This document shows, one piece after another, positions 1-29,205 of a DNA stretch of 32,000 nucleotides. The stretch lies in assembly GCA_002952755.1 (NCBI GenBank), contig CP025011.1, forward strand, positions 1 through 32,000, read 5' to 3'. A program made the position numbers and the translations under genes. The notes under the pieces are model-generated. The model ran no database searches. It had not been told where the DNA came from and worked only from the letters and a program-made list of their open reading frames with translations. Position 1 is the stretch's first letter; each line of letters opens with the position of its first letter. Origin of the DNA: Candidatus Saccharimonadota bacterium (GTDB lineage: Bacteria > Patescibacteriota > Saccharimonadia > Saccharimonadales > UBA4665).

Positions 1-209
1 AATACCAGAACACAACCGATTAAGAGCGAGGACTGTTTGAGTCTCTAAAGAGGCGAGTTCCGCAGCGACGGTTGTGTTCTGGTATTTTCGAGTAATGTTT
101 TACGTTTAGCGCCGAGAGTTTTTGGTTACTTTTTGCGGGACAAAAAGTAACAGGTAAAGGGCGTAATTCGCGGGTGGGGGATTTACTGAGGAGGGTTAGG
201 ATGTGAGAG
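1..209 (+). repeat. Composite repeat family A, copy A1. Nested hairpin with arms 1-17 / 70-86 and core 18-69, then a 41-nt invariant block (112-152) containing a small hairpin at 125-151, then a G-rich tail that runs to the dnaN stop.
   Basis: aataccagaacacaacc (1-17) is the exact reverse complement of ggttgtgttctggtatt (70-86); the arm may continue left of the window. Core: GATTAAGAGCGAGGACTGTTTGAGTCTCTAAAGAGGCGAGTTCCGCAGCGAC. Small hairpin: GTTACTTTTTG-CGGGA-CAAAAAGTAAC at 125-151. The whole module recurs reverse-complemented at 5232-5476. Confidence 0.8.
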
Positions 210-1301
210 CTAGCTCTTCAGGGGCATAATAATGTGCGAGTAATCGCTGGCTGCGGGGTCGCGCAAAAGGGATGGTTCGAGTTTGCCATTGAAAGCAAAG
301 CTCACTTCCTCGCCAGAGAGGACATGCAGCGCATCGAGCAGGTAACGAGAATTAATGGTAATCGAACCGCTGCCTTCTACTTTAGCAGGCGCCTTGGCGG
401 TATTTTCGCCAAGCTGGGAGGCGATAGAGCGGATACTCAGCTCCTTTGTTTCCTCGTCGATATTGAGTGTAATGCTGCCCGCACTTTCGCGGGCAAACAG
501 GCTGGAAATTTTTGCTGCATTCAGTAAGTCGGCACGCAGCAGGGTGGCGCTGGTAGTAAAGCTTGTCGGAATTAGCTTGCGGTAATCAGGATATTTGCCT
601 TCGATCAGCCGGGCAACCAGTTCTACATCACCAACCCGGAAAAGTACTTGCTGATCGTCGCTCGTTACCTGCACCTCGTCTTCGGCGTCGCCCAAAATAC
701 GCAGTAAGTCCTGCATAGCCGTTACCGGCACCAGCAGATTGATGTCCTCATCCGTTTTGAGTAATTCTTTTTCGGCCAAGCGGTAGCTGTCGGTAGCCGC
801 CACGTGCAATACACCGTCAGCAGTATGGAAGTACACCCCAGTCAATACTGGGCGAGCTTCGTCACCCGACGCGGCAATAACAACTTGTTGCAACGCCTTT
901 TTTAGGAGTGCCGATGGAACCGTCCACGTCTTACCCTCGGTAATCGCCGGCATAACCGGAAATTCCTCAGCAGATACACCATTGATAACTGATTGATATT
1001 GATCAGTCACGATATGCAATTTGTATTCATCTAACTGCAAATCAATGACACCACCCGGCAAACTACTGACAAAATCCTGCATCAGCCGGGCAGGAGCAGT
1101 GATCGCCCCCTCATCGGCAACTTTAGCGCCAATATAATGCGTGATGGCGATGTCTAAATTAGTGGCCGCAATGCTTAAACGATTGTTCACGGTTTTTATA
1201 AGAACATTGGCTAGCACGGGCAGGGTGCCGCGCGCATTGGCTACCCGGGCAACCGTACCTAGTGCTTTATTCAGGTTTTCCTGTGTGACTTGCAGCTTCA
1301 T
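210..1301 (-). CDS. dnaN: DNA polymerase III beta subunit (sliding clamp)
   Basis: 363-aa ORF. The N-terminus MKLQVTQENLNKAL...LPVLANVLIK and the three-domain length are typical of DnaN. It lies downstream of dnaA on the same strand. AAGGAG sits 9 nt upstream of the ATG. Confidence 0.97.
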   Translation of the reverse strand: MKLQVTQENLNKALGTVARVANARGTLPVLANVLIKTVNNRLSIAATNLDIAITHYIGAKVADEGAITAPARLMQDFVSSLPGGVIDLQLDEYKLHIVTDQYQSVINGVSAEEFPVMPAITEGKTWTVPSALLKKALQQVVIAASGDEARPVLTGVYFHTADGVLHVAATDSYRLAEKELLKTDEDINLLVPVTAMQDLLRILGDAEDEVQVTSDDQQVLFRVGDVELVARLIEGKYPDYRKLIPTSFTTSATLLRADLLNAAKISSLFARESAGSITLNIDEETKELSIRSIASQLGENTAKAPAKVEGSGSITINSRYLLDALHVLSGEEVSFAFNGKLEPSLLRDPAASDYSHIIMPLKS

Positions 1302-1566
1302 CGTTATGCACTCCTTACTATGTAACTAATTAAATATATTAGTTGTTATTGTTATAGGCCCTGTGGAAGATGGGGAAAACGCGTCAACTAACAGATGATT
1401 TAGGTATGCTTTGGCCTGTGAAAAAATAGCCAGGAGTATGTGCGCAAAACGGGGAAAAAGAAGGGGTTGTCCACTGCGTCCATGGCATGCAGCATATGAT
1501 TTTGTGCACAAATAGTGTTCACGCCTCGGCATCTCCACGGCTAATTCCCAGGTTTTTGCACAGCTT
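1302..1566. other. dnaA-dnaN spacer: candidate second oriC module (AT-rich DUE-like stretch plus weak DnaA boxes)
   Basis: AT-rich run at 1321-1356 (tgtaactaattaaatatattagttgttattgttata). DnaA-box-like 9-mers: tgtggaaga 1362-1370, ttgtccact 1467-1475, ttgtgcaca 1502-1510, each 7/9 to TTATCCACA or its complement. The 123-aa ORF listed here (1326-1697) looks spurious. Confidence 0.45.
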
Positions 1567-2961
1567 TTACGCATACAGTTTGTCCTTAATGCTAGTAATG
1601 GCGCTGCGGATATCGGCATCAAGGCGCGATTCTTTTTCGATTTTTTCGATGGAGTGAATGGCGGTAGTGTGGTCTTTACGTCCCAGCTCCCGGGCAATCT
1701 TAGGGAAACTGAGGTGTAGTTCGCTCCTGAGCATATACATAGCCACCTGGCGTGGTACCACGATGTCTTTATCGCGTTTTGGGCCTAAGATGTCTTCAAT
1801 TGGTATTTGGAAATGTCGTGCGGTGCGCTCAATGATTTGTTTGGCGCTAATGTGCTTAGGTCGGGTTTGGGCGCTGCCGAGCAGGCTGCTAGCAATGCCC
1901 AAGTTAGGATCGAGGGCGCGCATTTCGCAGAAAGCCAATAACTGGTTGAGTGCACCTTCCAGCTCACGGATGTTGGTCTGAACATTATTTGCCAGATACT
2001 CGGTAACGTCAGTAGGCAACGTGATGCCGTGATTATGGGCTTTGGTCTGCAGAATGGCGCACCGTGTTTCAAAATCCGGTGTTTGCATGTCGATGCTCAT
2101 ACCCCACACAAAGCGGCTGCGCAAACGCTCTTCCAGTGTCGGAATGTCGCGCGGTGGCTTATCACTGCTGATAATGATCTGTCTGCTGGCCTGGTGCAGG
2201 GCATTAAAGGTATGAAAGAATTCTTCCTGGACCTTTTCTTTGCCGGCGATAAATTGGATATCGTCAACGATTAGTACATCGGCACCACGGTAAAAGTCGG
2301 CAAAGTCGGTATTCTTTTTAAATCTTAGGGCGTCGACGAATTCCTGCAGAAACTGCTCGCTTGATATATAGACAACACGGGCTTGAGAGTTGCCGGCTAA
2401 TACTGTATTACCAACTGCCTGCATAAGGTGTGTTTTGCCAATGCCGACGCCTCCATATAAGAACAAAGGGTTATATTTTGTGCCTGGCTGGGCGGCTACC
2501 GCCTGGCAGGCCGCATAGGCCAGTTCGTTGCCGGAGCCAACGATGAAGTTGTCGAAGGTATAGCGCTCATTTAACCCTTGACGATAGGCGTGAGTAAGGC
2601 CTGTGGCCTGCGGTTTAGCTGGTGTGGCATGTGCGGTGCTGGCACCGGGAGAAGGGCGCAGGACGGCAGCTTCTTCTTCGCGAACTGGTGTGAGGGCAGT
2701 GTGGATCTTGTATTCGACCTGGCCGACGTTCGTACCGTTTTTACGCAATGTTTCGATGATCAGATCGTTATATTTACGCTCCAGTTGTTGCTTAATAAAG
2801 ATGTTGGGTACGCCGATAATGATGCGTTCGTCATCCTGTTTGAGCAACACCGTGTTTTTGAACCACGTAATAAAGTTCCCCCGCGAGAGCGAAAGCTCGA
2901 TCTCGCCTAACACTGCTTGCCACAAATCTGACGCTGTTTGCATCACCCTCTCACTCATCAC
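1567..2961 (-). CDS. dnaA: Chromosomal replication initiator DnaA
   Basis: 464-aa ORF with Walker A GGVGIGKTHL, Walker B LIVDDIQF, and a C-terminal DNA-binding region ending ...DHTTAIHSIEKI. Position 2961 is GTG. An ATG at 2958 or 2943 is a possible alternative start. Confidence 0.97.
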   Translation of the reverse strand: MMSERVMQTASDLWQAVLGEIELSLSRGNFITWFKNTVLLKQDDERIIIGVPNIFIKQQLERKYNDLIIETLRKNGTNVGQVEYKIHTALTPVREEEAAVLRPSPGASTAHATPAKPQATGLTHAYRQGLNERYTFDNFIVGSGNELAYAACQAVAAQPGTKYNPLFLYGGVGIGKTHLMQAVGNTVLAGNSQARVVYISSEQFLQEFVDALRFKKNTDFADFYRGADVLIVDDIQFIAGKEKVQEEFFHTFNALHQASRQIIISSDKPPRDIPTLEERLRSRFVWGMSIDMQTPDFETRCAILQTKAHNHGITLPTDVTEYLANNVQTNIRELEGALNQLLAFCEMRALDPNLGIASSLLGSAQTRPKHISAKQIIERTARHFQIPIEDILGPKRDKDIVVPRQVAMYMLRSELHLSFPKIARELGRKDHTTAIHSIEKIEKESRLDADIRSAITSIKDKLYA

Positions 2962-3245
2962 TTAATACTAAAAACTATACGCCTGACGGTTACTTTTCCA
3001 CAAGTTTTCGAACCATGTTTATAACACACCATCCTACAGACGGGCCGACTAGGGATTTATACACAATATCAAGGCACATCTGTTAATGTGTGGAAAGAAC
3101 TTGAGATTGTGTGGAAAACTTGCTAAAATTAATGGGTTAAACATTGTTATTTTCACCAGAAGATAATAATTACAGAAAACTAAAGGGGACTCGTGTCCAG
3201 CCAACACCTTGAAGGCGGGACGCTCGTCCTGTAGAGTGAGAGCAT
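2962..3245. other. oriC candidate: DnaA-box cluster between divergent dnaA and rpmH
   Basis: Boxes: TTTTCCACA 2994-3002 (8/9), TTATACACA 3057-3065 (8/9), TGTGGAAAG 3089-3097 (7/9, complement orientation), TGTGGAAAA 3110-3118 (8/9, complement orientation). AT-rich sequence lies at 3121-3180. The ORFs listed at 3049-3252 and 3170-3376 are spurious. Confidence 0.65.
3209..3237 (+). promoter_or_regulatory. rpmH promoter candidate (-35 TTGAAG, 17-nt spacer, -10 TAGAGT) that would give a leaderless or near-leaderless mRNA
   Basis: TTGAAG at 3209-3214 and TAGAGT at 3232-3237. The ATG at 3246 is only 8 nt downstream of the -10 hexamer, and no Shine-Dalgarno motif lies between them. Confidence 0.5.
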
Positions 3246-3383
3246 ATGCCAAAACGAACGTACCAACCCAAGAAACGCCACCGCGCTCGCCAGCACGGTT
3301 TTATGGCACGCATGGCCAACCGCGCCGGTCGTGCGGTATTGCGCCGTCGCCGTCTTAAGGGTCGTGTTGCACTCACTAAGTAA
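3246..3383 (+). CDS. rpmH: 50S ribosomal protein L34
   Basis: Too short for the ORF track, so translated by hand: [45 protein letters not shown] (45 aa). This is the classic L34 pattern, and the gene is in the conserved position before rnpA. Confidence 0.95.
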
Positions 3384-3423
3384 TTTGCAAAAAGTCTAAG
3401 CCTATAAGGAGTGCGCTCCAGCC

Positions 3424-3813
3424 GTGATCACGCAAGCTCATAGATTCCATGGTCGGAACTCTTTGCGCTTTGTGTATCGGCGCGGGCAAACGATTCGCAC
3501 CGGAGTCGTTTCTCTTAAGTATATCCGCAACCAGCGCGAAGAAAAGTATCGCGTAGCTGTAGTGGTGAGCCGTAAGGTGAGCAAGTCTGCAGTAGTGCGT
3601 AACCGTATCCGCAGACGGGTGTATGAGATTGTACGTAAAGAGGCGACATACATCGGGGCGGCATACGATTTAGTTTTCTTTGTGTACGACGAATCGGTAG
3701 CCACTGTTTCGCACGCCCAACTAGAGCAGGCAATTATCGGCAGCCTGGAAAGGGCCAAGGTACTTAACAGATCAGAACGTGCTATAGTAGAAAATAAGGA
3801 GACGCTCACGTAA
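3424..3813 (+). CDS. rnpA: Ribonuclease P protein component
   Basis: 129-aa basic protein containing ...VVVSRKVSKSAVVRNRIRRRVYEIVR. The order rpmH-rnpA-yidC is conserved synteny. It has a GTG start, with AAGGAG at 3406-3411. Its stop overlaps the yidC start (TAATG). Confidence 0.9.
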   Translation: MITQAHRFHGRNSLRFVYRRGQTIRTGVVSLKYIRNQREEKYRVAVVVSRKVSKSAVVRNRIRRRVYEIVRKEATYIGAAYDLVFFVYDESVATVSHAQLEQAIIGSLERAKVLNRSERAIVENKETLT

Positions 3814-4763
3814 TGTTTACGACACTGATCATTCAGCCGATTTTTAACCTCTTAGTTCTTATTTATGCGCTACTGCCAGGGCATAACTTTGGTCTGAGCA
3901 TCATTATATTTACCATCGTTGTCCGCCTGCTCATGTGGCCGCTTGTGAAAAAGCAGCTGCATCAGGTAAAAGTGATGCGCGCTATTCAGCCTGAACTGAA
4001 GCGCATCAAAAAAGCCGCCGCCGGTAACCGCCAGCAAGAATCGTTAATGATGATGGCGCTCTACAAAGAGCGGGGCATCAATCCGTTTGGTTCTATCGGC
4101 GTACTGCTTATCCAGCTGCCTATTCTGATTGGCCTGTATAGTGGCCTCCAGCGCATTTTGCACAATCCTAAGGAGCTTGAGACATTTGCGTACACACCTT
4201 TGCGGCATTTGCCTTGGATGAAGCAACTGGCCGGCGATATTCATCAGTTCGATCATACGTTATTCCATGTAGTCGATCTGACGCGCAGTGCGTTTGGACC
4301 TAAGGGCGTGTACTGGCCGGCCTTGTTTATCGTGCTCGGCAGCGCTGTGGTACAGTTCTACCAGAGTAGCCAACTGACACCTGCGCCGAAAGACGCTCGC
4401 AAACTGCGTGACATCTTGAAGGGTGCGAGTAGCGGCCAGCAGGCTGATCAGTCTGAGGTGAATGCGGCTGTAGCGCGGAGTACTCGCTTCTTGCTGCCCG
4501 CCATGGTCTTCTTATTTACAGTAAATATCCCTTCAGCATTGGGTCTGTACTGGCTGGTGGGTGGTATGGCGGCCCTCGTGCAGCAAACGATTGCGCTCCG
4601 TGACGACACTAAGGAGATGGAAGCTGAAGTATCTGCCAAGGACGCAAGCCGTGCTGCAGCTAAAGAAAAAGAAAAGCACGCCGTCGAGGCGGAAGTTGTT
4701 ACAATGCCTACCAAACCTAAGCCAGCAAAAAAGAAGAGTAATCAAAAGCGGAGGAAAAAATAG
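3813..4763 (+). CDS. yidC: Membrane protein insertase YidC (short, monoderm-type, Lys-rich C-terminal tail)
   Basis: 316 aa with multiple TM segments. The motif LLMWPLVKKQ...MRAIQPELKRIKK is typical of YidC/Oxa1, and the tail ends KPKPAKKKSNQKRRKK. Synteny supports the call. Confidence 0.92.
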   Translation: MFTTLIIQPIFNLLVLIYALLPGHNFGLSIIIFTIVVRLLMWPLVKKQLHQVKVMRAIQPELKRIKKAAAGNRQQESLMMMALYKERGINPFGSIGVLLIQLPILIGLYSGLQRILHNPKELETFAYTPLRHLPWMKQLAGDIHQFDHTLFHVVDLTRSAFGPKGVYWPALFIVLGSAVVQFYQSSQLTPAPKDARKLRDILKGASSGQQADQSEVNAAVARSTRFLLPAMVFLFTVNIPSALGLYWLVGGMAALVQQTIALRDDTKEMEAEVSAKDASRAAAKEKEKHAVEAEVVTMPTKPKPAKKKSNQKRRKK

Positions 4764-5219
4764 ATGGAAGACGCCATTCGTTACGCTAAGAAGTACCTCG
4801 AAGATTTGCTGTCTTTTTTTGGTCTGAACACCGATGTGTATGCCACCTCCGAAGATGAGGTGATCGAGCTGGAGGTGCCATCGACGCATCTGAACGGTTT
4901 TTTGATTGGCCAAAAAGGCGACAATATGCGCGCCATGCAGTTTTTAGTGAGTAACGCCCTGAAAAATCAGGGGTTCGATTATACGCGCGTGAATGTTGAT
5001 ATCGCCGAATATAAAAAGCAACGCGCCCAGCGTCTTAGCGACCAGGCAGAAGAATGGATGAAAAAGGTCAAAGAAGATAAAAAGTCTATGGATCTTCGCC
5101 CGATGAATGCCGCCGACCGTCGCACTATCCATAAGTTAGCCCAAGAATGGGGCCTCATCAGCGAATCTGACGGCGAAGGCCGTGATCGGCATATTGTGCT
5201 TAAGCCTGAGGCTGAATAG
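4764..5219 (+). CDS. jag: Jag/KhpB-type RNA-binding protein (KH + R3H domains)
   Basis: 151 aa. KH-like segment FLIGQKGDNMRAMQFL. R3H-like segment MNAADRRTIHKLAQEWGLISESDGEGRDRHIVLKP. It lies immediately after yidC, as in many bacteria. Confidence 0.85.
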   Translation: MEDAIRYAKKYLEDLLSFFGLNTDVYATSEDEVIELEVPSTHLNGFLIGQKGDNMRAMQFLVSNALKNQGFDYTRVNVDIAEYKKQRAQRLSDQAEEWMKKVKEDKKSMDLRPMNAADRRTIHKLAQEWGLISESDGEGRDRHIVLKPEAE

Positions 5220-5231
5220 AGTTTCGGCTGA

Positions 5232-5476
5232 ACTTACATATATCTCCTCATTACCTCCACCCCAAACCCCACAAACCAGACTTCCTCAGTAAATCCCAAC
5301 CCGCGACCTGCAATCCTTATATTGTTACTTTTTGTCCCGCAAAAAGTAACCAAAAACTCTCGGGACCAACATAAAACACTACTTAAAGAAAGAGCTTCTT
5401 GACCGTCGCTGCGGAACTCGCCTCTTAGAGGCTCAAACAGTCCTCACTCTAATTGGTCAAGAAGCTCTTTCTTTAA
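5232..5476 (-). repeat. Composite repeat family A, copy A2 (inverted relative to A1). Nested hairpin with arms 5383-5404 / 5455-5476 and core 5405-5454, plus an invariant 41-nt block at 5323-5363 that contains a hairpin at 5324-5350.
   Basis: ttaaagaaagagcttcttgacc (5383-5404) is the exact reverse complement of 5455-5476 (22/22). The core reverse complement AATTAGAGTGAGGACTGTTTGAGCCTCTAAGAGGCGAGTTCCGCAGCGAC is about 90% identical to the A1 core. The 41-nt block is identical to A1 112-152. The arms are unrelated to the A1 arms. The inner boundary near 5232 is approximate. Confidence 0.8.
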
Positions 5477-5678
5477 ATCGGTTTTACTCCAGGCCCCGAA
5501 CCCCGTCGGAGAGGGTAGGTGGATATTGTACCTAATACAGTAAATACTGAGTAGCTTTCAATCGCAGGACTACACGGCCGAACTATTCGGATATCTAGGG
5601 CTGCGATGGAGAGGTGGTTAGTGAATATCTTTTGCTTATTTTTGGGTTTGGGTTTGATCCGGGGTGAAAAAAGGCGGG

Positions 5679-8144: not shown

Positions 8145-8969
8145 ATGACCGCCAGTCTTAAGACATTTACTCAGCGCTACCGATACGCTGTCATTTTGCT
8201 TCGCCAGATGGTCGTGTCCGATTTCAAACTGCGCTATCAGGGGTCAGTTTTGGGGTATGTGTGGTCGCTGCTCCGTCCGCTATTCCTGTTTGTCATCATG
8301 TATGTGGTGTTCGTCCGATTTTTGCATATCGGAGACGACATACCCCACTACCCCGTGTATCTGCTTACCGGCATTGTGTTCTGGAATTTTTTTGCTGAGA
8401 TCACCAACAATGGCGTCTCGGCAATCGTCAGTCGCGGCGACTTGATCCGCAAACTCAATTTTCCGAAGTTTGTAATTATTCTATCGGCAGCCTGCGCGGC
8501 CCTTATTAATCTCGTGCTGAATTTGATTGTTATCGGCATTTTTATGTATACCAATCATGTACAGATTGGCTGGGGAGCACTATGGTCGCCGCTGTTTATA
8601 CTAGAGATTCTCGCCTTTGCGTTATCGCTTGCCTTTATTTTGAGTGCACTTTTTGTTCGCCTAAGGGATGTCAATTACATTTGGGAGGTGCTAATGCAGG
8701 CGCTCTTTTACGCTACGCCTATCATCTACCCCCTAAGTAAGGTGAGCAAGGATTGGCCTGCAGTCGCTAAAATACTACTGCTGAACCCCGTTGCTCAAGC
8801 CATTCAGGATATCCGCTATAACACGATTACACAGAAAACGGAGACGATTAGCTCCTTGAGCCACCACCTATGGTTTATATGTATACCTTTCGCTATCGTC
8901 GCTGTCATTGGCTGCGTGGCAATCGTTTTCTTTAAAAAACGTTCGCCTAGTTTCGCTGAAGAAGTATAA
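8145..8969 (+). CDS. wzm: ABC-2 type polysaccharide/teichoic-acid exporter permease
   Basis: 274 aa. The N-terminal motif FKLRYQGSVLGYVWSLLRPL and six TM segments are typical of Wzm/TagG. Confidence 0.8.
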   Translation: MTASLKTFTQRYRYAVILLRQMVVSDFKLRYQGSVLGYVWSLLRPLFLFVIMYVVFVRFLHIGDDIPHYPVYLLTGIVFWNFFAEITNNGVSAIVSRGDLIRKLNFPKFVIILSAACAALINLVLNLIVIGIFMYTNHVQIGWGALWSPLFILEILAFALSLAFILSALFVRLRDVNYIWEVLMQALFYATPIIYPLSKVSKDWPAVAKILLLNPVAQAIQDIRYNTITQKTETISSLSHHLWFICIPFAIVAVIGCVAIVFFKKRSPSFAEEV

Positions 8970-8972
8970 CCG

Positions 8973-9082
8973 GCCGGGCGAGACCATACTCCCACTTGCA
9001 GAGTCAAGCGTAGTACAACCAGACCGACTTCCAGTCGGCCTGCGTGAAACGCTCTGCAAGTGGGAGTATGGTCTCGCCCGGC
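8973..9082 (+). repeat. Nested hairpin repeat family B, copy B1: 31-bp perfect arms around a 48-nt conserved core
   Basis: 8973-9003 is the exact reverse complement of 9052-9082. Core 9004-9051: TCAAGCGTAGTACAACCAGACCGACTTCCAGTCGGCCTGCGTGAAACG. It fills the gap between the convergent wzm stop (8969) and GT4 stop (9089). Strand is the one on which the core reads TCAAGCG... Confidence 0.9.
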
Positions 9083-9088
9083 TAAAAC

Positions 9089-10243
9089 CTACTTTTCGAC
9101 GGCGCGTAGGATCTTTTTGTACACACTGGCAGCTATTGCTTCTTGAGTGAAGCTGGCCGCGGTCTTTTTGCCCTGTTCACTAAGCTGGTTGCGGCGGGCT
9201 TCGTCAGTAATAAGGTTTTCGATACACTCGGCAATGGCATCAACGTCTTGATAGTTAAAGTAGCTGGCTGCAGTACCGGCGACTTCATGGAATACCGGAA
9301 TATCGCTGGCAGCCACCGGTGTACCGTAACTCATTGCTTCGAGCAGCGGCATGCCAAAACCTTCGTAGCCGCTGGCATTCACGTACAGCACGGCATTTTT
9401 GAACAGCACGGCACGCATTAGCTCATCGACATATCCAAGATATTTAATATCGAAGCCTTGCCTGCGCAGATCGCGGATTTTATTCTCTTCGGCATTGCTT
9501 TTCCAGCCGATCCTTCCAGCTACCACCATAGTATGGGTGTTGCGGATAGTGGCCGGCAGTTTCGTATAAGCTTCTAAGATGCTCGGCAAATTTTTACGTG
9601 GCTCGATAGTGCTGAGGTAGAGGATAAAGGGTTTATGAATGCCTCCGTGGAGTAAAACAGAAGATTCCTCGCGGTCAGTAAACGTGCGAGGTGGCTCGGC
9701 CGGAATAGGTGTTACAAGAATACGATCTGTAGACTGGTGATATATGCCAGCAATCTTTTGCTTGCTAAATTCAGACACTGTAATAATAAAGCTGGAACGG
9801 CGTACAGCTACCGGCACAAACCGTTCCAGGTCACGCTGGTTTTTATCGGCTACATATTCGGGAAGATCTAGGTAGGTAAGATCGTGGATAACCGGGGCGC
9901 TTGGGGTGCGGCGCAAGCTAGGGTAGCTTAAGAAGTTGGGGTACAAGATAAAGTCGGCCGCGGTTTTGCTTAGAATTTCTACCGGGCATTCAATCCCCCA
10001 TCGGCGCAATTGATACAACACTTTACTGGGGATGAAACGAACTGCTTTATAGCGAATATTCGGCGCCTGGGGGAAATGGGTAATCGAACGCTTACCTAAG
10101 AAATTATAGTAAAAGCCAATGAGCTCAACTTGTTCCGGATACTGCGCCGCGAGGCCCATGATCAGGCGTTCGGTGTAATAAGCGACCCCTGTTTTATTGA
10201 CGAGCAATGGGCTGGCATCGAAGACGATACGGAGTGGACGCAT
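9089..10243 (-). CDS. Glycosyltransferase family 4
   Basis: Motif EGFGMPLLEAMSYGTPVAASD. The ATG at 10243 (MRPLRIVFDAS) is preferred; the ORF-track start at 10252 is TTG. Confidence 0.85.
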   Translation of the reverse strand: MRPLRIVFDASPLLVNKTGVAYYTERLIMGLAAQYPEQVELIGFYYNFLGKRSITHFPQAPNIRYKAVRFIPSKVLYQLRRWGIECPVEILSKTAADFILYPNFLSYPSLRRTPSAPVIHDLTYLDLPEYVADKNQRDLERFVPVAVRRSSFIITVSEFSKQKIAGIYHQSTDRILVTPIPAEPPRTFTDREESSVLLHGGIHKPFILYLSTIEPRKNLPSILEAYTKLPATIRNTHTMVVAGRIGWKSNAEENKIRDLRRQGFDIKYLGYVDELMRAVLFKNAVLYVNASGYEGFGMPLLEAMSYGTPVAASDIPVFHEVAGTAASYFNYQDVDAIAECIENLITDEARRNQLSEQGKKTAASFTQEAIAASVYKKILRAVEK

Positions 10244-10274
10244 ATATACCAATAATACCGTATAATGTGATCAA

Positions 10275-14313: not shown

Positions 14314-15560
14314 TGAGCGGTATCATCTGGATTGATGTCACTGATTTTTTGAAGTGGCAAGGTAACTTTACTGCTTTTCAGCATATTCAGTACCACATGG
14401 CGCAACTGTATATGGCGAGTGATCACGATGCAGCCTTTTTCGTCTACGACGAACCGTCTCATTCGTTTTCGAAGGTTGATTTTGACCCCGACAAACTTTC
14501 GCATAGTGGTATGCGCATCGAGACTATGGCTGTACCACCAGTTGGTAGACGTTTCTTGCAGAAAGCCAAGCAAGCTACTCCTGCACCTGCAAAACGAGCG
14601 CTTAAGAAGCTTATGAAGGCTCGGCCTCTTGCACAAAGCGACGCGGCGCACGTGAACGGCCATGCGCCGTTTGCACAGGGCGATACTGTCGTTGTGCTGG
14701 GTGGTATCTGGCACGGCAGTTTCGCTACAGATATGGCGATTCAGAAACAACAAAAGGGCTTCCGCTTTGTGCACGTCGTGCATGATATGGTGCCGGTGGT
14801 ATGCCCGCAATGTGTCGTAGAAGATTTGCCGGAAGTATTTGCGGCTTATAAAGAAAAGATTTTCAGCATAGCCGATGGATTACTGATCAATTCCGAGTCG
14901 TCCAAGAAAGATGCGATTGCGTTTATGAAGCAGCGCAAGATAGCGATACCAAAACATACTGTATTTCGACTAGCCGATGAAGTCGCAACAGGTAAAACGC
15001 CTCGCGCTGTGCACGGCCTAAGACCACAGGAGTTCATTCTATCTCTAGGAACTATCGAGGGCCGCAAGAATCATATGCTCTTATACTATGTCTATAAGCA
15101 GGCAGCTCGCCAGGGTATTACACTTCCCAAAATGGTTATTGCCGGTCGGCACGGTTGGCTGGTGGAAGACTTTTTCTATCTGGTATCGCGTGATCCGGAA
15201 ATTAAGGACAAGATTATCGTCTTAGAGGGGGTCGATAACGAAGAGCGCGCATGGTTATACAAGCACTGCCTGCTGACAGTTTGGCCATCATTTTACGAAG
15301 GCTGGGGTATGCCTGTGGCCGAAGGGCTCACCTATGGCAAGGTCTCGCTCTCTACCGACACCTCATCGATGCCGGAAATTGGGGGCAAGCTGGTGGATTA
15401 TTTTTCTCCTTTCGACCCTCAGTCGTGCCTTCAGCTAATTGTAAAATATTTGGACACATCCACCAGGCAGCGGCGCGAACAGGAAATTAAGAGAAATTAC
15501 CGCGTAACTACTTGGGAAGACATGTTCCAGGTAGTTAGCCAGTTTATTGATAGTGTATAG
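14313..15560 (+). CDS. Glycosyltransferase family 4
   Basis: Motif EGWGMPVAEGLTYGKVSLSTD. The start is taken at the ATG at 14313 (MSGIIWIDVTDF...), which overlaps the upstream stop as TAATG. The ORF-track start is 14286. Confidence 0.8.
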   Translation: MSGIIWIDVTDFLKWQGNFTAFQHIQYHMAQLYMASDHDAAFFVYDEPSHSFSKVDFDPDKLSHSGMRIETMAVPPVGRRFLQKAKQATPAPAKRALKKLMKARPLAQSDAAHVNGHAPFAQGDTVVVLGGIWHGSFATDMAIQKQQKGFRFVHVVHDMVPVVCPQCVVEDLPEVFAAYKEKIFSIADGLLINSESSKKDAIAFMKQRKIAIPKHTVFRLADEVATGKTPRAVHGLRPQEFILSLGTIEGRKNHMLLYYVYKQAARQGITLPKMVIAGRHGWLVEDFFYLVSRDPEIKDKIIVLEGVDNEERAWLYKHCLLTVWPSFYEGWGMPVAEGLTYGKVSLSTDTSSMPEIGGKLVDYFSPFDPQSCLQLIVKYLDTSTRQRREQEIKRNYRVTTWEDMFQVVSQFIDSV

Positions 15561-15589
15561 TCGACGGCCAGTCTCAGTATTATATAGGG

Positions 15590-15636
15590 CATTTCGCGCA
15601 GGTCGGCGAAAGTCGATCTGACTGCAGTATGCTAGA
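15590..15636 (-). repeat. Arm-less diverged copy of the family-B core (copy BX)
   Basis: The + strand CATTTCGCGCAGGTCGGCGAAAGTCGATCTGACTGCAGTATGCTAGA aligns without gaps to the B2 + strand core (33/47 identical). The inner helix CAGGTCGGC-GAAA-GTCGATCTG is retained. No flanking inverted arms were found. It ends 1 nt before the stop codon at 15638-15640. Confidence 0.65.
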
Positions 15637-15637
15637 T

Positions 15638-16597
15638 TCAATCCCAGTACTTTTGGTATTCAAGGGTAGCAAGAATGCCAGCGGTGTCCGTCGGCAGTGA
15701 CGGATCACCTCCCAGCCCAACGTATCGTTCAAATAGTTGTCTTCGTATCTGTATACTGGTTGCCTTCGCTCGGAATCTTATGCGCTGTTCTTGCGCGAGC
15801 ATTTTCCCTAATGCTTGAATATTACTATGTAAGCAGTACCTTTCATTGTCATTAGCGGCTAAGTGATCGAAAAAGCCAAATCCCTTATCGCTATCGTATG
15901 TTGTGTTAGTGCCATTATCGTCAAGCAAGACCCCTGCTCTCGCTATAGTATCAACATCGTGAATTCCTTGCAGTAAATGGCCGTCGGTGATTTTGGCTCT
16001 CTCTTTCATTCCTAGGGAATCAATCTTTTTACCCGATACAAAAGAACTGACAATTGCCCCGCCATAGTTAGCGGCTACGGCCTTCTCGGAATTGGCGACA
16101 GGAATGTCTTTGAGTAGTCTTATCCTTTCTTCGACAAACTCTACTTTGTCAGCAAGCGTAAGTTTTGGTGGGCGCAGACCAGCATAGCGGTATTCCTGAT
16201 CCTTCTGGGGTATTTTTAATATGGCTCTGTCCCCCTCGGGCGTATGTATAGTAAACGCTCTAGAATGAAACCCTGATCGTCGACGCCCCAAAGGGCCGAT
16301 TGGCATAGCTTGGACAACTGGCAGAGACGCGAATCGTGCCACAGTACGATATCTTTCGAACGATTCCTGCAATCTGACACGGGTTTCGATATGCTCAGCG
16401 ACATGGTCTTGGGGTAACCATCCTTCAAGGGGCAGCCGCCTAACTGCTGTCTCTTGATGGGCGGTTTGTATGGCTTGATCTGGCTTAATGGCTGTGCTGG
16501 TAGCGAGAATACCGGCTAATTCCAGGCCGTGCTCGTATCGCGTATCTGTACTATAGTCGGCGAGGATGGCTGCGGCTTCGAATCTCGAATAAGGCAT
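15638..16597 (-). CDS. Hypothetical protein, possibly with a protein-kinase-like fold
   Basis: 319 aa. Kinase-like landmarks in order: RAILKIPQK (beta3-Lys-like), VLLDDNGTN (catalytic-loop-like D..N), GFGFFDH (DFG-like Asp). It is on the opposite strand to its neighbours and looks lower in GC on spot counts. The functional call is weak. Confidence 0.5.
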   Translation of the reverse strand: MPYSRFEAAAILADYSTDTRYEHGLELAGILATSTAIKPDQAIQTAHQETAVRRLPLEGWLPQDHVAEHIETRVRLQESFERYRTVARFASLPVVQAMPIGPLGRRRSGFHSRAFTIHTPEGDRAILKIPQKDQEYRYAGLRPPKLTLADKVEFVEERIRLLKDIPVANSEKAVAANYGGAIVSSFVSGKKIDSLGMKERAKITDGHLLQGIHDVDTIARAGVLLDDNGTNTTYDSDKGFGFFDHLAANDNERYCLHSNIQALGKMLAQEQRIRFRAKATSIQIRRQLFERYVGLGGDPSLPTDTAGILATLEYQKYWD

Positions 16598-17886: not shown

Positions 17887-18005
17887 GTGTTAGATTCTGA
17901 CATCCCTCCCTCTCATCAAGTAGAGCGTTTCACGCAGGCCGGCTTGCGCCGGTCTGGTTGCACTACGCTTGACTCTACTTGATGAGAGGGAGGGATGTCT
18001 AACAC
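17887..18005 (-). repeat. Nested hairpin repeat family B, copy B2 (opposite orientation): 25-bp + 8-bp arms with a 6-nt bulge around a 47-nt core
   Basis: 17901-17925 pairs perfectly with 17973-17997, and 17887-17894 pairs with 17998-18005. ttctga (17895-17900) is unpaired. The reverse complement of core 17926-17972 is TCAAGCGTAGTGCAACCAGACCGGCGCAAGCCGGCCTGCGTGAAACG. It lies between the convergent wecB-like stop (17854) and the GT2 stop (18008). Confidence 0.9.
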
Positions 18006-18973: not shown

Positions 18974-20231
18974 TTCCTAGTATTGATATCATAATAGCAG
19001 TAAACGCTGCAATAATCTGCGAAAGTATTGTTCCCTTCATGACTCCCCGGTTGTGTAGAAAGGCAAGGCCTATGCCAAACGTGGCAACTGCACAGAGAGC
19101 CGCGAGCGTCGTCTGGCGCAATTTATCGCGGCACAAATCAACGCCCAGCAAGATAAAGGCCAGGGCGAATAAAGCCGTGGCTACAGCCGATAGGCGTAGC
19201 AAATTAGTATATGAACCGGCTTGGATCCCGAGTAGCCCCTCGGTAAACACCTTGGGCCGCGGGATGAACATTAGCGCAAGAATGGTAGCGACGCCCATCG
19301 TCAGCTTAATAAAACGCCTCACCTGGGTATTGGCGGTTGACGTATTGGCAACGGCGAGGGGCAATGACAGCCACATCAGTGGGGTAGTGGCGTAGAGAAT
19401 GGTCTTCGCGATTGTCGCAACGGCTGCGTACTGTCCAGCTTCGTGCGGCGATAGCCAGAATTTAGAAATGACTACGTCGGCAGTCGAAAGAATGGTGAGC
19501 GCGCCGATGGCTACTAATGTAGTTACTGCTCGCCCCCGCTCAGCCCGCAAGTGCGTGAGTCTGCTCAAATAGAGCTGCATACTGCGGCGTGGCACTTTAG
19601 AATCTTGTATATTTGCTGAACCTGCCCGATCGACGATGTTAGCGACGATAACTATTACCAACATGCCGGCGCCGACACCGGCAATGGCGCCGCTGGTGCC
19701 GCCCCCGGCGAGCACAAATACGCTCGCCAGTAGTAGCTCACAGAATGAGGCGGACGCCCCCATAACGCCGGCGAGTGCGAAGCGTCCTTCTCCCTGGAGC
19801 CGCCCAATGGTAATCGTGAAGGGGATATTGACGAGTAAACTGAGCGACATAATGATAATCGGCAATACGCTATGAAAACCGAAGGAGCCGTGGCTAAAAC
19901 TCAGTACTGCCGAACCAACAGCGATAATCATCAGGATAACGGTACTCGCGGCAGTGTTGAGACCTTGTAAGGTACGGCTACGCAGATGCTCGTCCTGATA
20001 CTTTGCGGTGATAATAATCGACAACACATTGAGCACGACGTAGCCAACTGACAGCTGGGTAAGGAGCGAGATTAAAAACTGCACCTCGCCATACTCGCTG
20101 GTATTGACCAGGTGGGACATGACCGGGTAGTAGGCGTAATTCAGTAGTGAGGCCAGCCCAGAAAGCCCATAAAACAGGAGTGAACCTGAAAATATGCTGC
20201 GCAGTGGATTTTTACGTTCAATTTGTTTCAT
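18939..20231 (-). CDS. Polysaccharide flippase-like multi-TM protein (MOP/Wzx superfamily)
   Basis: About 430 aa and about 12-14 TM segments with no soluble domain. It sits between glycosyltransferase genes. The ATG at 20231 (MKQIERKNPL) is preferred over the TTG at 20288. Confidence 0.6.
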   Translation of the reverse strand: MKQIERKNPLRSIFSGSLLFYGLSGLASLLNYAYYPVMSHLVNTSEYGEVQFLISLLTQLSVGYVVLNVLSIIITAKYQDEHLRSRTLQGLNTAASTVILMIIAVGSAVLSFSHGSFGFHSVLPIIIMSLSLLVNIPFTITIGRLQGEGRFALAGVMGASASFCELLLASVFVLAGGGTSGAIAGVGAGMLVIVIVANIVDRAGSANIQDSKVPRRSMQLYLSRLTHLRAERGRAVTTLVAIGALTILSTADVVISKFWLSPHEAGQYAAVATIAKTILYATTPLMWLSLPLAVANTSTANTQVRRFIKLTMGVATILALMFIPRPKVFTEGLLGIQAGSYTNLLRLSAVATALFALAFILLGVDLCRDKLRQTTLAALCAVATFGIGLAFLHNRGVMKGTILSQIIAAFTAIMISILGNARHGKTNITH

Positions 20232-27483: not shown

Positions 27484-27502
27484 AATCTTTTAGTTGCGCC
27501 GT

Positions 27503-29102: not shown

Positions 29103-29205
29103 AGCACTCCTCACCCACCGTTATGGAGAGTCAAGCGTAGTGCAACCAGACCAGCGTAAGCTGGCCTGCGTGTAACGCTCTCCATAACGGTGGGTGAGGA
29201 GTGCT
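29103..29205 (+). repeat. Nested hairpin repeat family B, copy B3: 28-bp perfect arms around a 47-nt core
   Basis: 29103-29130 (agcactcctcacccaccgttatggagag) is the exact reverse complement of 29178-29205. Core 29131-29177: TCAAGCGTAGTGCAACCAGACCAGCGTAAGCTGGCCTGCGTGTAACG. It lies between the glmS stop (29263) and the start of the phosphohexomutase-like gene (29053). Confidence 0.9.

Follow-up and report, generated by a model that had tools for sequence, protein, structure and literature searches.

Several described systems place short palindromic sequences between bacterial genes. REP sequences and their BIME and REPIN arrangements, mobilised by RAYT transposases (TnpA-REP, HUH Y1), are short, do not code for protein and are found outside genes, at gene 3' ends. 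Each is an imperfect palindrome with a conserved mismatch, conserved over its full length, directly abutted by GTAG and often found in inverted pairs, and these non-autonomous repeats can stabilise transcript ends. MITEs such as Correia/NEMIS, ERIC, RUP and BOX are intergenic elements of ~100-150 bp that are present or absent among relatives and are co-transcribed with neighbouring genes; their terminal inverted repeats are conserved, bind transposase and decay independently, and they leave direct target-site duplications. Integron attC sites are copy-specific palindromes at gene 3' ends that conserve structure over sequence, carry conserved unpaired bases and are recognised as folded single strands; the base of their imperfect stems (the R and L boxes) is conserved and the centre varies. 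PATEs of the IS200/IS605 type are defined by distinct left and right subterminal hairpins, a fixed target tetra- or pentanucleotide and a lagging-strand-template bias. Furthermore, the correction of quasipalindromes by intramolecular template switching is known from earlier E. coli genetics. According to published evidence, template switching turns imperfect bacterial inverted repeats into perfect ones (PMC5941160). Such correction is a DNA-level process, like the one considered below, and would mirror substitutions and indels from arm to arm; it is, however, a mutational mechanism and not an element, and leaves a conserved core, a defined length and insertion unexplained.

Saccharimonadales and other bacteria of the candidate phyla radiation have tiny, tightly packed genomes, and to our knowledge very little is known of their mobile DNA or non-coding RNA. 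The repeat described here, family B, measures ~100-110 bp (about 105 bp) and occurs at gene ends in the small genome of a member of the Saccharimonadales. It was characterised in a window of 32,000 nt, which is the whole stretch of DNA analysed. Like REPs, family B copies are short, non-coding, extragenic and found at gene 3' ends, appear non-autonomous, may stabilise transcript ends, and contain an imperfect palindrome within the 20-40 nt range with a conserved mismatch and GTAG nearby. Unlike REPs, they are conserved in the centre only and not as a whole unit, and they stand singly, each within its own perfect arms of 26-31 bp. The earlier note had called the repeat REP-like. The palindrome and the mismatch bear this out, but no GTAG or GTGG lies directly 5' of the hairpin: GTAG is found 6 nt upstream of helix P3 in five copies, and is replaced by GAAG in one metagenome copy (L103) and by ATAC in a diverged relic. 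No RAYT gene was found within the 32 kb window or beside the metagenome copies.

With MITEs, family B shares its size, its terminal inverted repeats, its intergenic position, its presence or absence among relatives and, presumably, co-transcription with neighbouring genes. In contrast to MITE termini, its termini are variable and yet perfectly complementary, so that conserved terminal inverted repeats are lacking, and target-site duplications are not general. Copy-specific palindromes at gene 3' ends, structure conserved over sequence, conserved unpaired bases and possible recognition as a folded single strand are features in common with attC sites, whereas the pattern of conservation is the reverse and the stems are perfect. 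The attC combination of R''/L'' and L'/R' boxes at the stem base, integrase and attI was not found, with no integrase among the scanned ORFs and no cassette array nearby. A single central hairpin, no shared flanking motif and a 2:2 orientation of the cores distinguish the family from PATEs. Nor do the copies resemble intrinsic terminators: no T-run follows any of them on either strand, and a terminator scan recovered no copy as a full hairpin. Family B is best classed among the extragenic palindromic repeats, where its inverted pattern of conservation is unusual.

Architecture and distribution of the family B hairpins

The window begins at the replication-origin region (dnaN 210-1301, dnaA 1567-2961, then rnpA, yidC and jag) and continues into an O-antigen-like polysaccharide locus with wzm/wzt, many glycosyltransferases, glmS and a phosphoglucomutase (PGM) gene. 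Its proteins map to a 1.45-Mb contig, and among named organisms their nearest relatives belong to Candidatus Saccharimonadales. The window holds three full family B copies (W1, W2 and W3) and the relic (Table 1). The inverted-repeat scan reproduced the 31/31 pairing that the earlier note had seen at W1, and alignment located the same core at the two further places it had named, in reverse complement at W3. Each window copy is enclosed by a different perfect inverted repeat, as had been claimed (31/31, 28/28 and 27/27, with zero mismatches), around a loop of 48 nt in W1 and 47 nt in W2 and W3. Chance alone would not be expected to yield a perfect inverted repeat of ≥26 bp within 32 kb; in ~1.7 Mb of other loci, only ~9 unrelated examples were counted. 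The three loops are one core, TCAAGCGTAGTRCAACCAGACC-(stem-loop)-GGCCTGCGTGWAACG.

Table 1. Repeats and related features in the window, and S element sites on other contigs.
Feature	Position	Strand	Evidence or structure	Gene setting
W1 (copy 1) left arm, 31 nt	8973-9003	.	31/31 complementary to 9052-9082, inverted-repeat scan	Convergent genes; W1 is 3 and 6 nt from the two stops
W1 core, 48 nt	9004-9051	+	Sequence, fold, alignment, covariance model R1	
W1 right arm, 31 nt	9052-9082	.	Inverted-repeat scan; confirmed in Logan contig L156	
W1 helix P2	9008-9011 with 9049-9052			
W1 internal loop	9012-9019 / 9043-9048			
W1 helix P3	9020-9025 with 9037-9042		A.C mismatch 9023.9039	
W1 helix P4	9026-9029 with 9033-9036		Loop 9030-9032	
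Block missing from L155 junction, 117 nt	8972-9088		G + 110-nt hairpin + TAAAAC; alignment, both flanks matched, single gap	
W2 (copy 2)	29103-29205	+	Arms 29103-29130 / 29178-29205 (28/28), core 29131-29177	Tandem genes; 57 nt after glmS stop (29263), 49 nt before PGM start (29053)
W3 (copy 3)	17899-17999	-	Arms 17899-17925 / 17973-17999 (27/27), core 17926-17972 reverse-complemented	Convergent epimerase / GT2 genes; 44 and 8 nt from the two stops
Relic, diverged core copy without arms	15586-15640	-	nhmmer, alignment, pair counts, DNA fold	Convergent genes; abuts stop codon of ORF 15638-16597
Family A copy 1	1-86	+	Arms ≥18 bp (cut by window start), 50-nt core	
Family A copy 2	5360-5499	-	Inner arms 5383-5404 / 5455-5476 (22/22), core 5405-5454; outer imperfect arms to 45 nt (78%)	
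S element	87-215	+		
S element	5260-5388	-		
S element, contig L004	1-116			
S element, contig L143	15324-15452			

Together with three metagenome copies (L086, L091 and L103), the family is known from seven members, namely six full copies, which formed the alignment used for pair counts, and the relic. Cores range from 47 to 52 nt. Their outermost helix (P2) has 4 bp (GCGT/ACGC) and leads to a conserved asymmetric internal loop (AGTGCAAC / CGTGWA), a second helix of 6 bp (P3) and an apical stem of 3-4 bp (P4); P3 and P4 make up an imperfect palindrome of 23-25 nt. The apical stem covaries (GACT/AGTC, AGC/GCT, GGC/GCC) below loops of TCC, GTAA and GCAA, so the compensatory changes and loops described in the earlier note are all seen in the three window cores. 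The A.C mismatch within CAGACC/GGCCTG, which it had considered invariant and which reads as G.U on the other strand, is present in 6/6 full copies and in the relic (7/7). On the other hand, the part shared between arms is not limited to the 4 bp (AGAG...CTCT) first reported; about six inner pairs are semi-conserved across copies, as G-N-A-G-R-R. Conservation of the core is partly a matter of ascertainment, because the pattern used to search metagenomes required 20 core bases to be identical. Only the core and these ~6 inner pairs would be held in sequence, with the core folding as a single strand and the apical stem-loop free to vary, and the core may be the cis-acting part recognised by a propagating agent.

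The relic was recovered with an nhmmer profile of the three window cores (E 3e-4). Its P2 is compensated (GCAT/ATGC); in P3 a C-G pair has become T-A, the A.C mismatch is retained and a second A.C, equivalent to G.T on the opposite strand, has been gained. Its loop reads GAAA on the + strand. The window hairpins have fold z-scores of -12 to -14 on both strands, and the stability of the RNA hairpin on either strand is -70 to -88 kcal/mol.

Given that the same arms and cores occur in assemblies of three sequencing runs (Logan contigs of SRR34954208, SRR34954209 and SRR9952756, each carrying them independently), the hairpins are not assembly artefacts. Logan contigs typically break at hairpin repeats: the inner end of the W1 left arm is the exact end point of three of them. 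W3 is confirmed at the start of contig L156, and both halves of W2 were found, in contigs L004/L005 and L149. As regards an inverton (invertible promoter), in which loci served by one recombinase share their inverted repeats and both orientations coexist in a population, the arms here differ between loci, and in two runs Logan contigs that lead out of the W2 arm enter its core in one orientation. Also in two runs, the ends of L004/L005 and the start of L149 meet at the apex of the apical hairpin of W2, around 29152. The contigs flanking W2 overlap by 5 nt only (CGCTG), though no 31-mer is repeated there. Coverage was probably lost at the apex of the hairpin; a physical break or heterogeneity may also be the cause.

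All family B copies are intergenic and follow stop codons, with the full copies 3-57 nt after the stop, and half of the copies lie between convergent genes. The distance of 2-6 nt from stops proposed earlier holds for W1 but not for W3 or W2 (Table 1). All window copies lie on one replichore, because dnaA and dnaN are located at 210-2961, and on this single replichore the cores are oriented 2:2. Every copy has housekeeping or polysaccharide genes beside it, and no transposase, reverse transcriptase or recombinase was found near any copy among the scanned ORFs of the window and the metagenome copies.

An exact core 22-mer had no match in 185,579 GTDB representative genomes or in viral contigs, and a looser gapped core pattern had none in viral contigs. 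In metagenomes, a gapped pattern returned 57 stretches, three of which were true members by profile score: L086 and L091, from one sample, and L103, on a 1.2-Mb contig, which adds two metagenomes beyond the window. Their arms, all new sequences, pair at 26/26 (L086), 28/29 with one T.G mismatch (L091) and 26/26 (L103), and all three sit after stop codons of housekeeping genes; CTP synthase, dnaE and DEAD helicase genes are among these neighbours. No family copies were present at the GlmS loci of 80 species. Covariance model R1 and nhmmer recovered known members only over ~370 kb of loci from Saccharimonadales and other candidate-phyla-radiation bacteria; R1 gives W1 77.8 bits, with W1 itself a seed member. 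Another route to further copies, through spurious ORFs, yielded conserved peptides of just 6-8 residues and was dropped because changes in apical length shift the frame.

The repeat had not been matched to a known family from sequence by the earlier reader, and Rfam 15 agrees, with 0 matches in the window at gathering thresholds. A permissive Rfam scan of the full hairpin returned generic miRNA-precursor models only (≤41 bits against gathering scores of 60-100), the core alone matched rsmX at 11 bits (E 2), and the relic had no match. In the literature on such repeats in Saccharibacteria or Patescibacteria, nothing relevant was found. Several by-eye ideas, namely hammerhead, hairpin, twister or pistol ribozymes and group II intron domain V, received no Rfam support and were rejected. 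A by-eye reading of the internal loop as a K-turn or loop-E was unconvincing and was likewise set aside.

Copy-specific arms and the junction lacking W1

Across the six-copy alignment, 25 of 27 arm pairs changed on both sides and none (0/27) on one side only. Watson-Crick pairing accounts for 98.7% of arm cells in the six full copies, with one mismatch in ~167 arm pairs and no one-sided G-U intermediates seen. The outer 20-25 bp of the arms are different in every copy, and homology between the arms of window copies is not significant outside the inner few pairs. Pairing stops abruptly, in that it is not significant past the perfect family B arms (p 0.4-0.9). Between L086 and L091, the cores are identical at 50/52 positions and the arms, of 26 and 29 nt, are only ~62% alike, with each substitution and each indel mirrored in the opposite arm; 16 nt of their left flanks are ~69% alike. 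No long hairpins lacking the core were found in the window.

The earlier suggestion that arm pairing is either created with the element or actively maintained is upheld by these counts, since the pairing is far too perfect for independent drift and thus suggests that the arms are created or maintained by templating. A single mismatch in a helix of 27-31 bp costs little stability. Mirrored indels and the absence of one-sided intermediates are hard to obtain by independent mutation plus selection, and templated copying is the simplest cause. One arm may be copied from the other by DNA synthesis, through fold-back or intramolecular template switching, either at each new copy (giving copies that start out perfect and are soon turned over) or continually in place, and the outer 20-25 bp would be under no sequence constraint. 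Copying of this kind would explain the strict Watson-Crick pairing, the abrupt ends and the copy-to-copy differences together.

A junction without the hairpin was found on L155, a 1.6-kb JGI contig reached via the nearest homologue of the GT1 gene beside W1. This contig shares the convergent wzm/GT1 pair; the two Wzm proteins show 77% identity and agree at each of their last 13 residues. Its wzm and GT1 stop codons overlap by 4 nt, so that it has no intergenic DNA, and neither W1 arm resembles either flank. The W1 arms arrive with the element, because the whole hairpin is one clean insert relative to L155, and according to the same alignment they are neither older intergenic DNA nor a copy of the local flank. 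Instead of never having had the hairpin, L155 could have lost it precisely.

An imperfect 7-bp direct repeat surrounds W1 (TATAACC at 8965-8971 and TAAAACC at 9083-9089, 6/7), where L155 has a single TTTAGCT; for that copy, p is about 0.01, and the repeat could be a target-site duplication. None of eight other hairpins has a target-site duplication (2-4 of 7 positions matched), and we claim none for the family because the direct repeat occurs at W1 only. In the region 8970-10274, the GT1 gene itself is inserted in opposite orientation between wzm and wzt, in both the window and L155, relative to contigs L153 and L154, where wzm leads directly to wzt. No close donor of this gene was found above 74% identity.

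In ~150 kb of loci from relatives (GlmS 81-86% and DnaN 86-87% identity), no copies of family B or of a second hairpin family, A, were found, and the glmS 3' flanks of contigs L143, L146, L147 and L157 contained no element. The gap between jag and the GT4 gene is 459 nt in the window, versus 3 nt or an overlap in relatives. The high repeat density remarked on in the earlier note is accordingly lineage-specific.

Family A, the S element and other repeats

Family A has the architecture of family B around a different core, of 50 nt, and two copies lie in the window (Table 1). The stem of copy 2 has two layers, with 22 perfect inner pairs followed by 23 outer positions that are ~56% complementary (p 0.03), and its outer right arm is the start of another repeat, the S element. 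This two-layer stem could represent a nested insertion, or correction reaching a limited distance from the core.

The S element is a conserved non-coding sequence of ~110-125 nt that contains TTTTACGTTT..GAGAGTTTTTGGYTACTTTTTGCGGGACAAAAAGTA, with an 11-bp hairpin, and a G-rich tail (..GGATTTACTGAGGAG). It always stands just after a stop codon and is followed by a large perfect hairpin, which is family A in the window and a different hairpin with a 62-nt core in L143. At least three copies exist in this genome, and a relative whose GlmS is 85% identical has also conserved the element; neither Rfam nor viral contigs contain it. Within window positions 1-5500, two units of family A plus S, downstream of dnaN and jag and mutually inverted, bracket the origin genes. 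In relatives, recF follows dnaN after 10-20 nt, and jag abuts or overlaps the GT4 gene. The rest of the 459-nt jag/GT4 gap (5500-5678) contains more S-related fragments: part of the S tail recurs in direct orientation as CAGTAAATACTGAG, and TTTGGGTTTGGGTTTG runs in the inverted direction with respect to CCCCAAACCCCACAAACC (5260-5277). These fragments suggest repeated rearrangement of the modules.

A third type of hairpin, with 18-bp perfect arms around a structured core of 62 nt, is found at 15064-15161 of L143 and also in L144. In L143 it lies 13 nt after the PGM stop codon; the gap there measures 400 nt and contains an S element as well. The corresponding PGM/manC gap in the window (27484-27502) is just 19 nt and is therefore an empty site for the composite of this hairpin and S. 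Furthermore, three perfect palindromes without a loop (15395-15422, 15942-15977 and 19006-19033), with a common centre, ACTCCAGTT|AACTGGAGT, and outer A/T-rich arms of varying length, occur in L015, from another assembled genome of Saccharibacteria. They look like a separate repeated palindrome family.

Candidate explanations and implications

For family B, we lean towards a non-autonomous palindromic insertion element whose core alone is constrained in sequence and whose arm is re-templated by fold-back or template-switch synthesis, a description that we judge to have about an even chance of being correct. Within a single lineage of Candidatus Saccharimonadales, the element would have been inserted whole at the 3' ends of genes. 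As a side effect, transcripts of either strand would gain a very stable hairpin beside the stop codon, and where genes are closely packed this hairpin would probably block read-through or 3' exonucleases. Decay of an old copy would fit the armless, diverged relic.

The main alternative, possible though less probable, is that the hairpin is a functional cis-acting RNA of transcript 3' ends, serving as a factor-binding terminator or insulator, as a barrier to 3' exonucleases or as an RNase III site. A protein would bind the internal loop, and selection on transcripts of both strands would permit only Watson-Crick pairs; selection on both transcripts of convergent genes could indeed account for such strict pairing. 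The location of the copies shortly after stops, half of them between convergent genes, agrees with this, as do the very stable folds on both strands, the covarying core helices and the GNRA loops of W2 and W3. The relic, which keeps P2 and P3 by compensation, has G.U pairs on one strand and ends in a GAAA loop, is explained by a functional single-stranded structure, possibly RNA, no less well than by a decaying mobile element. However, no copy is followed by a U-tract, and core orientation relative to the transcribed strand is mixed (reverse in W2, forward in L086 and L103). Wobble pairs in the core favour the reverse strand, whereas the arm wobble of L091 and the GNRA loops favour the forward one. 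Selection alone should also leave mismatches and G.U pairs in the arms, yet one-sided variation is absent. Close relatives do without the hairpin at the same junctions, and Rfam offers no match.

A bolder version of the insertion-element reading, which we find rather doubtful, is a 'hairpin transposon' in which the loop region alone is heritable and the stem of 26-31 bp is rebuilt for each copy by self-primed fold-back synthesis. Arms would then be perfect at birth and drift along copy lineages, and a putative Saccharimonadales enzyme would recognise the conserved hairpin with the A.C mismatch together with the UGCA internal loop. This mode of propagation would be analogous to rolling-hairpin replication; we know of no description of it for chromosomal repeats.

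It is improbable that the core alone is mobile and that the arms derive from the target, either as a pre-existing hairpin into whose loop the core was inserted or through inverted duplication of 26-31 nt of flank. Window arms are statistically unrelated beyond their inner ~6 bp, and a neighbouring 9-bp hairpin (GTGCTCATT/AATGAGCAC) includes the 5 outermost nt of the left arm of W2, as this idea would allow. A perfect hairpin of 21 bp with a 3-nt loop also occurs in L006, another Saccharibacteria assembled genome. On the other hand, long perfect hairpins without a core are absent from the window, and the arms of L086 and L091 resemble each other together with 16 nt of flank, as if copied together. 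At W1, target-derived arms are contradicted unless L155 lost its hairpin by deletion: the empty site has no intergenic DNA, and the arms are unlike both flanks. The earlier note's idea that the element targets hairpins, or forms by fold-back of the target, thus fails at this copy, where the hairpin is wholly extra DNA.

A structured recombination site, similar to integron attC and marking cassette ends in the variable polysaccharide locus, appears quite improbable. In its favour, the GT1 gene whose 3' end adjoins W1 is an insertion between wzm and wzt when compared with L153 and L154, gene order is broken between glmS and PGM where W2 lies, and copies are always at gene 3' ends. L155, however, has the same wzm/GT1 arrangement and no hairpin, copies from other organisms lie beside CTP synthase, dnaE and DEAD helicase genes, the conserved part is central where that of attC is at the stem base, and no integrase is nearby. 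Finally, that the arms are guide- or spacer-like foreign sequences, displayed as short hairpin RNA on a conserved scaffold, is hardly credible: their length of 26-31 nt is within the CRISPR spacer range and every arm is unique, but 20-mers of three arms had no exact match in 2.9 million viral contigs, the other loci compared had none, and no array, promoter or associated effector gene accompanies the copies.

In this lineage, several families of structured intergenic inserts have expanded at places where relatives have overlapping stops. The part that is usually conserved in such elements, their termini, varies in family B and is yet perfectly paired. If, as the insertion-element reading holds, the arms are re-templated at each copying, such hairpins would reveal a new signature of DNA mobility and offer a natural setting in which to study template switching at palindromes. 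If the hairpins are instead a device at transcript ends, they would show how convergent genes are insulated in genomes without canonical terminators. As a practical consequence, such hairpins break short-read assemblies of these genomes.
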